The position numbers and the translations under genes were made by a program. The notes beneath the pieces were generated by a model. The model did not search any database. It saw only the letters and a program-made list of their open reading frames with translations, and was not told where the DNA came from. A stretch of 62,849 bases of DNA, filler included, from Stramenopiles sp. TOSAG23-2 (lineage: Eukaryota): NCBI GenBank assembly GCA_900128395.1. It is 5 parts of 5 records of this genome, joined end to end, with 100 filler letters (N's around TTAATTAATTAA, not from the genome) between each part and the next. Parts side by side here need not be neighbours in the genome. Positions count along the whole stretch, not along the records: positions 28,990 to 57,733 come from LT649396.1; 4 more parts are not named here. One strand, written 5' to 3'. Each line of letters begins with the position of its first letter. Position 1 is the stretch's first letter. Below, piece by piece: positions 50,173 through 52,596 of this stretch.

Positions 50173-52596
50173 ATGTCTCCCATCACTATGTCTTCATCCT
50201 CCACTGTTATATTTCATCGTCACCAACAATCAACGTTAGTATTATTACTATTACTAAGTATATTGTTATATATAAGCCCTATCCATTGTGTTAAACCAAA
50301 AGGTGAAAGCAAAGCATTATTAAGAGTTCTAAATGATGTAGACAATGTATTGAGTAAAGAAACCAAAGTCTTAGAAGAACTTCAAGCTAATCGTTTTAAG
50401 GAGAAGAAGTATTATGAAATCGTTGACGGTGATTGTAAATGTTCAAACTGGAACCCATTATCAAAATGTGGTGATAATAGTGAGTGTAAGCCAGATGCAC
50501 AATATAAAAATCCTTGCAAACATACATGCATTTGCGAAGAAGATTTAGCCAACCCAGAATGTAGATGCGCTAAAGAGGTCCCAAAACCAGCAACGTTTGA
50601 AGAAACGTTGAAAGAAAGTGGTGACAAATGTGCAGATTGGTGTAATTGTATGGCAGATGAACTATTATACGGTTTAACTCACTCTTTGCCATATGACGCA
50701 GATGATCATGGCTTATATCACTTTAAAAAAGTTGATAGGAAAGACTCAGTTTTTAAAATAGATAAAGAAACCAAAAAATGGCAAATATCTTATAGTCATA
50801 GGTTTAAAAAAAACAGTAAAAAATTTGTTACTAGTAAGGCATTTATTAACATAGATGATGAAGAGAATAAAGGTAAACTGGACAAATTAACAAAGAAAGA
50901 CTTCGAGGCCAAATTAGCAATTGATTTATTGCAATATTTTAAAAATCAACCCGATGATAGGCCAACGCATGCAAACCCATTGGAAAGACAACGTAATGAA
51001 CGATGTAATATTTTAAAGAACCCGAAAGAATGCAAACAAGATGAAACGTGTGAATGGCACTTTTTTATGGGTGCTAAACCAACATGCCAAGCAAAAGATC
51101 CATGTTTTAAATATGATGACGATGAAGAAGCGTGTAAAGCTGATGAGTTATGTACAACTGGAACTATAAGGCATGGTCTCAAATTTTACAGTTGTTCCAT
51201 CGCAAATCCAGCTGATCAACCTCACAACTCCGCAAAAGCCAGTGAAGATGCTGAAATGTGTTATAAATCGTTAAAAATACCACAATGCAGCTGTAGGAAA
51301 ACTAAATGTTCCTTAGCACTAGCAAAACGATTTGTAAAAGTTGCTGATGATATGCGCCGTATGACTACATCAAAGCAAAGTAAGGATTCGTTACTAGATA
51401 ATTTTCAATTTGCATTGGATATGCTGGGAATGTTGCCGGGCATAGGCGAAGTTACCGATATTTTGAGTGGGGCTTTATACGGAGCAAGAAAAATGTGGAA
51501 AGATATGCTTTTATCATTCATATCACTTATGCCTGGTGTAGGTCAAATTATAGGGAAATTACGTTTGGCAAGAAAACTGTGTCGTAAATGTTGGGATGGT
51601 ATTATGTCATCAATCGATTTTGTTTTAAGTTCTGGTATTTTAATAGATGTATTGAAAGAATTATGGTTGATGGTAAAAAAAGGATTAACTGGAAAAATAA
51701 AAAGCATACTCAAATCAATAATAGCATTTGGTAAACGATTTACCTCTGCAATAATTCATCCAGTCATAATAGCAAATAAAGGTACAATTGCATTTTTAAA
51801 AGCTGCAAAAAACAAAAACGTGAAAGGTGGTGAAGAAAAAGCTATAATAGATTATACAGCAGATATTATTTTAAAAATGGCTGAAAATAAAAATTGTAAT
51901 GTAAACCGATTTCAAGTAGAGCTTCTAGAACTTGTACAGCAAGTTTTACCAAATTTAAATAGTGTAGCAAAAAAGTTTGATCAAGATCATTTAATCCCTG
52001 CAGGCAGTTTTTTAGCAGCTATATATCCATGCATATTGCATTTAGAACATATAAAAAAAGAAGATTGTAAAGTAGCTCAAGAAAATATTGTCAAAGGAAG
52101 AGAAGCTCTCGTTAATCGAATACCTGGTTTAAGACAATGTTTAGTTGGTAAAGTTTCTACTTTGCATGATCATATAAGTGGTAAATTTGATGCAAATCAA
52201 GTTAAAATTAATCCAATGGATGAAAAATGTGATGATCAGGAAGGAACAGAGGATAGCGATTGTTTGCATAATGTAAATGGAAAATGCACAGTCACCGCTG
52301 CATGTCCTGGAGCGCAACGTGCCCCAGGTCATTGTTCAGAGGATGGTATTATTTGTTGTTTACATCCACCGAAAAAAGAACCAGATAATAATAGTAGTTT
52401 TATTGAATTGCAAGAAACTTCCACAACAATTTACAATAACGTTGATAAAAAGAATTTAGTAAATGAAGCACACGAAGCTATGTTTGATTTGTTTGACAAT
52501 ACTGTTGATGATATGATTGCAATAGATAATTCAAAAAGTAGATATGAACATAGCTTAGAATTATTGGAAATAATGAGTGCAAATAGAGAAAAATAG
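50173..52596 (+). CDS. Secreted cysteine-rich protein with a pre-toxin-TG-like helical hairpin and a C-terminal beta-defensin-like 6-Cys motif
   Basis: Signal-like LVLLLLLSILLYISPIHC; many Cys; ALDMLGMLPGIGEVTDILSGALY...MLLSFISLMPGVG; CLHNVNGKCTVTAACPGAQRAPGHCSEDGIICC. Confidence 0.75.
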   Translation: MSPITMSSSSTVIFHRHQQSTLVLLLLLSILLYISPIHCVKPKGESKALLRVLNDVDNVLSKETKVLEELQANRFKEKKYYEIVDGDCKCSNWNPLSKCGDNSECKPDAQYKNPCKHTCICEEDLANPECRCAKEVPKPATFEETLKESGDKCADWCNCMADELLYGLTHSLPYDADDHGLYHFKKVDRKDSVFKIDKETKKWQISYSHRFKKNSKKFVTSKAFINIDDEENKGKLDKLTKKDFEAKLAIDLLQYFKNQPDDRPTHANPLERQRNERCNILKNPKECKQDETCEWHFFMGAKPTCQAKDPCFKYDDDEEACKADELCTTGTIRHGLKFYSCSIANPADQPHNSAKASEDAEMCYKSLKIPQCSCRKTKCSLALAKRFVKVADDMRRMTTSKQSKDSLLDNFQFALDMLGMLPGIGEVTDILSGALYGARKMWKDMLLSFISLMPGVGQIIGKLRLARKLCRKCWDGIMSSIDFVLSSGILIDVLKELWLMVKKGLTGKIKSILKSIIAFGKRFTSAIIHPVIIANKGTIAFLKAAKNKNVKGGEEKAIIDYTADIILKMAENKNCNVNRFQVELLELVQQVLPNLNSVAKKFDQDHLIPAGSFLAAIYPCILHLEHIKKEDCKVAQENIVKGREALVNRIPGLRQCLVGKVSTLHDHISGKFDANQVKINPMDEKCDDQEGTEDSDCLHNVNGKCTVTAACPGAQRAPGHCSEDGIICCLHPPKKEPDNNSSFIELQETSTTIYNNVDKKNLVNEAHEAMFDLFDNTVDDMIAIDNSKSRYEHSLELLEIMSANREK

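Follow-up and report, generated by a model that had tools for sequence, protein, structure and literature searches.

We analysed a 62,849-nucleotide stretch of DNA from Stramenopiles sp. TOSAG23-2 (GenBank assembly GCA_900128395.1; hereafter the window), in which an open reading frame (ORF) at positions 50173-52596 of the plus strand encodes a protein of mixed bacterial and eukaryotic relationships. Residues 405-468 of this protein share, by profile comparison, true homology with a module that is conserved among the polymorphic toxins of bacteria. The rest of the protein belongs, going by its sequence relatives, to a small family of secreted, Cys-rich proteins that is confined to eukaryotes, and eukaryotes most likely acquired the module once from bacteria. 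We read the function of the product more tentatively: with somewhat less than even confidence, we take it to be a secreted membrane-inserting effector built on the acquired module.

The homology of the module emerged from sequence and profile searches. With the full-length protein as query, phmmer returned 147 matches at E<=1e-3 among 1.84 billion representatives; 135 of these, in proteins of widely differing length, align at residues ~350-550, and the other 12 are fragments of close relatives over other regions. An alignment of 25 sequences of the module region (A1), in which G419, G425, D429, P454 and G457 are invariant, found 34 longer and 84 shorter proteins when used as a profile, with E-values down to 4e-30. 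We then restricted the profile to the 22 A1 members without eukaryote-type flanks. This bacterial-only profile scored the window ORF at 82.4 bits (E 4.3e-18, Z=1.8e9), matched no other ORF among the 1054 six-frame ORFs that the window contains, and gave at most 4.4 bits on 2000 shuffles of the segment.

The module spans ~65 residues and follows the pattern LD..Q..LD..G..PG.G...D..[N]......R..W.....S.....P..G....K. Among 223 bacterial-type sequences, conservation in the first half of this pattern is D 88%, L 96%, D 93%, G 100%, P 99%, G 77%, G 99% and D 99%, and in the rest it is N 99%, A 74%, G 91%, A 90%, L 79%, S 96%, P 100%, G 100% and K 84%. The window protein retains 14 of these 17 positions, all at least 74% conserved in the bacterial-type sequences, and departs from the others with S432 for N, G433 for the next A and K440 for the glycine of RG. 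No Pfam or NCBIfam model covers the module. We found no prior description of it in the literature searched, which does not prove that none exists. Sub-threshold similarity to DUF4112 was seen for 10 of the 25 A1 members (best E 8.5e-4), to Diphtheria_T for three and to Endotoxin_N for one. Two module proteins, P0025 (732 residues) and P0028 (581 residues), have two copies each, every copy being followed by G-K-G-G-K; they bear no recognised delivery or toxin domain, an architecture unlike that of PAAR-like and RHS toxins.

The initial annotation of this gene had placed the segment in the pre-toxin position of bacterial polymorphic/RHS-type toxins, and direct homology bears this out. Pfam annotation of 68 homologues identified DUF4280, a PAAR-like domain, in 14 and RHS_repeat in one on the delivery side, and PT-HINT (3), Ntox46 (3), GH-E (1), AHH (1) and GIY-YIG (2) on the downstream side. 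In each annotated homologue the module lies behind the delivery domain and ahead of the PT-HINT or toxin domain, and the named toxins that follow it are mostly nucleases, plus one deaminase. Source annotations of these proteins include RHS proteins, VgrG, HNH/ENDO VII nucleases, polymorphic toxin type 15, GH-E nuclease and deaminase, from Fulvivirga, Brevibacillus, Paenibacillus, Pseudomonas, Schinkia, Zoogloea and a Pirellulaceae bacterium. Plasmid-borne copies occur in RHS, SpvB/TcaC-N, type-15 toxin and HNH/ENDO VII genes.

Genome neighbourhoods tell the same story. A search with a single protein, P0065, limited to one genome per species, yielded 14 loci, 13 of them true; the remaining locus, L015, proved to be UvrC and was rejected as a false positive. 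The true loci come from Prevotella, Parabacteroides, Prevotellaceae, other Bacteroidales, Rikenellaceae, Desulforapulum, three cyanobacteria, Terrimicrobiaceae, Scandinavium, Granulosicoccus and Robinsoniella, the phyla represented being Bacteroidota, Cyanobacteria, Desulfobacterota, Verrucomicrobiota, Pseudomonadota and Bacillota. On the module proteins of these 13 loci we recognised DUF4280 in five, RHS in three, Tox-PAAR-like in two, eCIS_core in one, Peptidase_C39 in one and no domain in two. A VgrG-type gene stands directly upstream in six of the 13, Hcp is present in two, and a DUF2169 adaptor gene is nearby in two. Because these architectures and neighbourhoods show it, the core idea of the initial annotation, a helical hairpin in a pre-toxin position, was right. 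One locus has a setting of its own: in Microcoleus sp. (L014:1896-7431) the Peptidase_C39 module protein is flanked by four to five paralogous coiled-coil, apolipoprotein-like ORFs of ~300 residues, a context that differs from type VI secretion system (T6SS) loci.

The eukaryotic gene that carries the module is real and conserved. Its frame is open under translation tables 11 and 1, and from the base composition of the window, 807 open codons would occur by chance with a probability of ~1e-29. The protein ends in REK followed by TAG-TAG, a double stop at 52594-52599. P0002, an 808-residue protein with the same start on a 2667-nt contig, presumably derived from a transcript, is 99% identical to the window ORF; it ends REKY, with Tyr at the first of the two TAG positions, so one stop codon differs between them. 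A more distant homologue of 786 residues, P0003, is 36% identical (E 2e-149). The ORF and every motif quoted in the initial annotation lie exactly where they had been reported, including the LDNFQ...GKLR string at residues 408-464 (nucleotides 51394-51564). Neither tblastn nor a profile search of the 1054 six-frame ORFs found a second copy of the gene or module in the window; the C-termini of family homologues vary after residues 611-620. The gene and the segments of its product are as follows.

50173..52596 (+): protein-coding gene, single exon; 807 codons plus TAG stop.
50173..50292 (+), residues 1-40: N-terminal hydrophobic segment, probable signal peptide or signal anchor, from hydropathy.
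50434..50649 (+), residues 88-159: first Cys-rich stretch, 12 Cys, from Cys positions.
50593..50958 (+), residues 141-262: conserved N-domain; C-x-C-M-A-x-E-L-L...P-Y, then beta strands and helices.
51004..51309 (+), residues 278-379: second Cys-rich stretch, 12 Cys, from Cys positions.
51385..51576 (+), residues 405-468: helical module common to bacterial polymorphic toxins.
51577..52182 (+), residues 469-670: cationic amphipathic helical region, net charge +10.
52261..52359 (+), residues 697-729: six-Cys knot, C-x7-C-x5-C-x9-C-x6-CC.
52378..52593 (+), residues 736-807: acidic helical tail, net charge -10, conserved in P0003, P0005 and P0009.

The module is the sole segment of the protein with bacterial matches; in a segment-by-segment search, all others found eukaryote-type relatives only. 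An alignment of 14 eukaryote-type family proteins (A2) reveals a common plan of leader, N-domain, three-Cys clasp, module and amphipathic helices up to a G-x-W-x-x-A-x-x-P-C motif, followed by variable C-termini. At the N-terminus, residues 21-41 form a hydrophobic stretch after 20 initial residues, with Kyte-Doolittle values up to 2.48 in 19-residue windows. The signal peptide of the initial annotation survives to the extent that this stretch is compatible with a probable signal peptide or a signal anchor; leaders in the homologues P0003, P0030 and P0138 are short and classical-looking. The N-domain, conserved across A2, matches eukaryote-type proteins only and has no Pfam match. The protein contains 38 Cys in total, mostly in residues 88-159 and 278-379. 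The first of these stretches is common to close relatives only, its residues 141-159 overlapping the better-modelled N-domain, and the second ends just ahead of the module in a near-invariant three-Cys clasp (C363, C372 and C379). The N-terminal region had been described as Cys-rich repeats; it is Cys-rich, but a blastp self-comparison of residues 41-400 (E<=50) found the identity match only and no repeats.

Behind the module, the Lys-rich amphipathic helices that had been noted are indeed present: the predicted helix at residues 509-546 has a hydrophobic moment of 0.59 and a net charge of +7. This helical region occurs in the eukaryotic family only, and the family motif G-x-(F/W)-x-x-A-x-x-P-C lies at residues 611-620. 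Scanning the whole protein and four pieces of it with Pfam gave nothing but sub-threshold hits to Defensin_beta, Ephrin_CRD, YceG_bac and similar models, and NCBIfam gave no match. The protein does not follow the whole plan of a bacterial polymorphic toxin, which comprises trafficking at the N-terminus, a variable toxin at the C-terminus and an immunity gene next door; it has no recognised trafficking or toxin domain, a eukaryotic-type leader and ordinary eukaryotic genes as neighbours. The coding styles of the family range from AT-rich to very GC-rich, and for this reason it probably spans distant organisms. A helix motif, L-x-D-V-D-x-V-L-x-K-E, stands directly behind the leader at residues ~50-70 of the window protein and at the extreme C-terminus of the eukaryote-type proteins P0027 and P0138; in those two, the predicted protein may run on into a neighbouring family member in tandem, or else the motif itself may move about among family proteins.

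Phylogenetic analysis of the module groups the eukaryotic copies. A FastTree phylogeny built from 241 unique modules places every one of the 18 eukaryote-type rows inside one 19-tip clade, and the eukaryote-type label requires two changes on the tree, compared with a mean of 17.6 after shuffling (0 of 500 shuffles as low). We also ran IQ-TREE on 64 rows, comprising the 18 eukaryote-type sequences, P0040 and 45 random picks from the other 222; here the 18 eukaryote-type modules form one side of a branch, with a support of 77.8 in the Shimodaira-Hasegawa-like approximate likelihood ratio test (SH-aLRT). This clade fits a single acquisition without proving it. Given the far wider spread and greater variety of contexts of the module in bacteria, the direction was probably from bacteria to eukaryote. 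The suggestion that the protein contains a horizontally acquired bacterial module is supported in that the module alone is common with bacteria and the eukaryotic copies cluster, which fits one acquisition.

Structure prediction was less informative. A full-length AlphaFold model has a mean pLDDT (predicted local distance difference test) of 53; residues 1-138 are mostly below 50, the N-domain is mostly at 70-83, and the helices at 520-670 reach 83. Over the module, the model contains helices at 403-418, 425-438, 442-450 and 456-465, with pLDDT about 56-65. The comparison with pore-forming toxins proposed in the initial annotation drew a blank: Foldseek with the full model found no PDB match at E<=1e-3, only armadillo-repeat-like noise, which is weak evidence with a model of such low confidence. 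At the sequence level, phmmer and family-profile searches of PDB sequences for solved pore-forming or translocation toxins produced nothing at E<=0.1; the best match of the family profile was a designed maquette (E 0.12) and that of the Cys knot was NFAP (5oqs, E 0.081), neither usable.

The tail of the protein had been called defensin-like. The Cys spacing is exact and is kept in P0003, P0005 and P0004, the third Cys being shifted in P0030; the positions conserved in the knot alignment (A3) are C, G, C, T, G, C and CC, and the consensus spacing of beta-defensins is close to this six-Cys pattern. Defensin_beta (PF00711) reached 13.6 bits (E 0.071) against a gathering cut-off of 21, and 12.9 bits in the 99% identical copy P0004, with no match in P0003, P0005 or P0030. 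A separate model of residues 680-745 (mean pLDDT 67.2, core 69-80) has strands at 24-28 and 47-51, and all four of its Foldseek matches in the PDB have the beta-defensin fold: bovine beta-defensin 12 (1bnb), tick carboxypeptidase inhibitor (1zlh), a platypus defensin-like peptide (1b8w) and human beta-defensin 2 (1fd3). These matches are not significant (E 5.7-9.4, template modelling score up to 0.51, probability at most 0.13), and the knot model may simply echo the Cys spacing. Given the sub-cut-off score, the non-significant fold matches and a domain that is not cationic, the beta-defensin resemblance is suggestive and not established. Six Cys ending in CC are common to both. Beta-defensins are peptides with a three-stranded beta-sheet, Cys pairs C1-C5, C2-C4 and C3-C6, and a cationic surface; the knot is an internal, non-cationic domain of an 807-residue protein.

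How might such a protein work? We propose that the module, with its three to four short helices, would form a hairpin that inserts into or translocates across membranes. This reading is suggested by its Gly/Pro turns, by helices rich in small residues, by a last helix whose hydrophobicity is borderline (mean hydropathy over 15 columns 1.57 for the bacterial and 1.87 for the eukaryotic modules) and, as hints, by the sub-threshold similarities to DUF4112, Diphtheria_T and Endotoxin_N. In bacteria, the hairpin would follow the delivery part of a contractile or shell machine (T6SS PAAR-like/VgrG, RHS or extracellular contractile injection system, eCIS) and precede PT-HINT, a releasing domain, or a toxin that acts in the cytoplasm. 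The nucleases and the deaminase found behind the module must reach the cytoplasm. T6SS delivery is believed to stop at the periplasm, and transmembrane domains (TMDs) adjacent to PAAR have been put forward as the means by which toxins pass the target inner membrane (PMC7773334). In the eukaryotic protein, the three-Cys motif would clamp the module, and the cationic amphipathic bundle, the beta-defensin-like knot and the acidic tail would follow it. The hairpin may act jointly with the cationic helices, and the whole assembly could be a secreted membrane-attacking effector with an antimicrobial, defensive or prey-killing role, a reading with which the hydrophobic leader, the 38 Cys and the cationic amphipathic helix at 509-546 agree. 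The setting imagined in the initial annotation, prey killing or extrusome cargo in a predatory protist, would be one conceivable form of it. Membrane insertion, secretion, the direction of transfer and the biological role of the eukaryotic protein are thus points that we infer. A more far-reaching version seems to us on the unlikely side: the module would be an autonomous and portable translocation device with which many bacterial contact weapons bring nucleases through the inner membrane, and one eukaryotic lineage would have captured it once and combined it with cationic helices and a defensin-like knot into a secreted pore-forming or antimicrobial weapon restrained by the acidic tail.

Several observations weigh against a membrane-inserting effector of bacterial descent. 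The hydrophobicity of the last module helix is borderline for a transmembrane helix, the similarities to DUF4112, Diphtheria_T and Endotoxin_N all lie under curated cut-offs, and the knot region (residues 671-735) has a net charge of -4. The full model is poor on average and over the module, and is without a PDB match at the threshold given above. On the phylogenetic side, P0040, which has no clasp, nests within the eukaryote-type clade of the 241-sequence tree; the support of 77.8 for a single clade is moderate and comes from 77 columns; and the direction of transfer is deduced from breadth of distribution alone. Finally, where the module precedes PT-HINT it may stay with the delivery part, which would fit a linker or loading role.

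This last point leads to an alternative that we regard as unlikely: in bacteria the module would serve for linking or loading, tethering or packing the toxin onto a spike, adaptor or shell, or else mark a processing site, and in the eukaryote it would mediate protein-protein contacts of an extracellular structural, adhesive or matrix protein. Its position directly behind a PAAR-like/DUF4280, VgrG or RHS core, sometimes ahead of PT-HINT, is what such an element would show; DUF2169 adaptor genes adjoin it in two of the 13 loci, and pre-toxin domains have been described as possible processing sites or linkers (PMC3482391; PMC13483458). The large, Cys-rich eukaryotic protein, without a recognised toxin domain, is likewise in keeping with a matrix role. 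However, binding to one partner sits poorly with G, P, D, N and S residues that are near-invariant across phyla and across delivery parts as different as PAAR-like, VgrG, RHS, eCIS, Big domains and Peptidase_C39. Moreover, none of those delivery partners is present in the eukaryotic window, and the helices behind the module are cationic and amphipathic.

The protein could also be a resident, membrane-associated component of secretory organelles or of the surface of the cell that makes it; module and helices would then act as a re-entrant anchor, with no offensive role. We think this quite unlikely. The leader sequence, the moderately hydrophobic helices at residues 445-534 and 606-625, and the sub-threshold similarity of the module to DUF4112, a membrane-protein family, agree with such a role, as does the core, which is conserved family-wide up to residue ~620, unlike polymorphic ends. 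Yet hydropathy after the leader peaks at 1.66, with no segment clearly transmembrane, and the defensin-like knot and variable C-termini fit secreted effectors better.

The initial annotation had assigned the module to Pfam PT-TG (PF14449), of which it would be a divergent member; this we consider very improbable, no scan having matched PF14449. PT-TG is described as a short, mostly helical or loop region of unknown function between trafficking and toxin domains, with the same place and partners (PT-HINT, RHS and VgrG) in polymorphic toxins as the module has (PMC13483458). Bacterial homologues of the module do lie between trafficking and toxin domains, which is a functional analogy and not a sign of membership. 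Among the 30 ESM Atlas clusters nearest to residues 395-480, four are PT-TG at 0.90 and 26 are unnamed bacterial clusters at 0.91, and one PT-TG cluster at 0.75 was returned for the whole protein; we treat all of these as leads only. PF14449, with a gathering score of 23.5 bits, had no match at E<=10 in the window protein, whether scanned whole, in four pieces or as a 100-residue segment. It was equally absent from 68 homologues (E<=0.001), 12 homologues (E<=5), the 25 A1 members (E<=10), the 14 genome loci, and precomputed annotations of 34 and 84 proteins, and none of the 19 plasmid records matched by the module bears a 'pre-toxin TG' label. The same Pfam library did recognise PT-TG in the pBS32 LXG toxin (88.3 bits, E 3.3e-25), and tblastn with the PT-TG segment of that protein returned many 'pre-toxin TG domain-containing protein' features.

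Direct alignment agrees. We compared A1 with A4, a narrow sample of eight genuine PT-TG segments from Bacillaceae plasmids; hhalign aligned the two colinearly across 75 columns but with a probability of 2.0%, an E-value of 0.025 and 8% identity, and A1 against a single PT-TG protein gave 0.8%. The invariant pattern of A4 is G-E-x-x-G-x-Y-D ... G-x-D-P-x-T-x-x-K-L ... R ... P ... G-K, in agreement with how PMC13483458 describes the domain. PT-TG is centred on the loop G-x-D-P-x-T-G-E-K-L...R, absent from residues 391-490 of the window protein, whereas the module is centred on G-x-x-P-G-x-G-x-x-x-D-x-x-N ... S-x-x-x-x-x-P-x-x-G. By these comparisons the module is not Pfam PT-TG. A very remote kinship is conceivable, given the ESM Atlas leads, the shared place and partners, and the narrowness of A4. 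As a PT-TG example we had also tried SPbeta YokI, which was set aside in favour of the pBS32 LXG toxin since it consists of LXG and Tox-SHH with no PT-TG. The N-terminal domains of YokI (L001:9028-10743) and the pBS32 toxin (L016:2501-4120) are 72% identical and their middles differ: the pBS32 protein has PT-TG in two stretches, and YokI continues without it into Tox-SHH.

An origin of the ORF as a bacterial contaminant or a chance frame is effectively refuted. Although the module is otherwise bacterial, the G+C content of the ORF (~30-33%) is the same as that of its surroundings, and the flanks are eukaryotic genes, part of them intron-containing. Of the seven segments behind the leader, six have matches only among eukaryote-type proteins that bear leaders and Cys-rich domains themselves, and a frame of such length has the negligible chance probability given above. 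G+C is ~30% along the whole window. Neighbouring genes encode a DEAD-box helicase, an intron-split eIF3a, a kinesin motor, a protein kinase, an HD-domain protein, and ankyrin-repeat and syntaxin proteins; as these are ordinary eukaryotic genes, we regard the studied gene as nuclear and eukaryotic rather than a contaminant. From its translation we read the kinesin motor as kinesin-II-like, which, if correct, would suggest a flagellate.

Other features of the window include the eIF3a gene at 21373-25066 (+), which consists of three ORF pieces separated by two short introns rich in TA/CA microsatellite; CA/TA runs like those of the introns also lie upstream of the studied gene, at ~50060-50110. 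Two divergent Lys/Arg-rich ORFs, at 34333-35799 (-) and 36660-37799 (+), are paralogues with 27% identity over 348 residues (E 2e-23) and have no Pfam match at E<=1e-5. A 383-residue Cys-rich, secreted-looking ORF at 58143-59294 (+) likewise has no Pfam match at E<=1e-5; its mature end would presumably begin with His (…VESHGS…), recalling copper-binding His-brace proteins. No Rfam family and no tRNA or rRNA was found in the window. One run of 63 N bases occupies 27185-27247, and others occur as pairs of 44+44 with 12 bases between them, at 28890-28989, 57734-57833, 59440-59539 and 61146-61245. The last three pairs are exactly 1706 bases apart, and 56000-62849 contains no direct repeat of at least 60 bases; we presume that the N runs are masking.

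Among known systems, the module can be compared with the TMDs that flank PAAR in T6SS effectors (Tse6, RhsA and prePAAR effectors), which resemble it in placing hydrophobic helices beside a PAAR-type tip and are proposed to insert into the inner membrane and give passage to a toxin that acts in the cytoplasm. Those TMDs, in the account of PMC7773334, are poorly conserved, mostly N-terminal and dependent on Eag chaperones. The module, in contrast, is strongly conserved and stands behind DUF4280/Tox-PAAR-like, VgrG, RHS or eCIS parts, and we saw no Eag-type gene in the 13 loci. How toxins of T6SS, RHS and eCIS that act in the cytoplasm get across the target's inner membrane is poorly understood. 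If the translocation reading is true, a conserved, easily recognised and model-less module in the right place would offer a direct handle on this process. As the sole bacterial piece in a secreted eukaryotic family, the module appears able to work alone, without the bacterial machine, and the family would be a natural test case for machine-independent action. DUF4112 (PF13430) and the diphtheria toxin T domain (PF02764) resemble the module below threshold over G/P-rich helical turns, and the window protein itself matches neither.

Eukaryotic proteins derived from bacterial polymorphic-toxin parts are known, among them the teneurins and the domesticated amidase effectors (Dae). Lateral transfer of toxin and immunity domains of polymorphic-toxin systems into eukaryotes, including Naegleria, dictyostelids and others, is recorded in PMC3482391. 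Those known transfers moved toxin, shell or immunity domains, whereas here the pre-toxin module alone would have been transferred and now lies inside eukaryote-specific domains. If this is true, the pieces of bacterial conflict systems that eukaryotes have reused would include a further kind, one that is not a toxin, a shell or an immunity domain.

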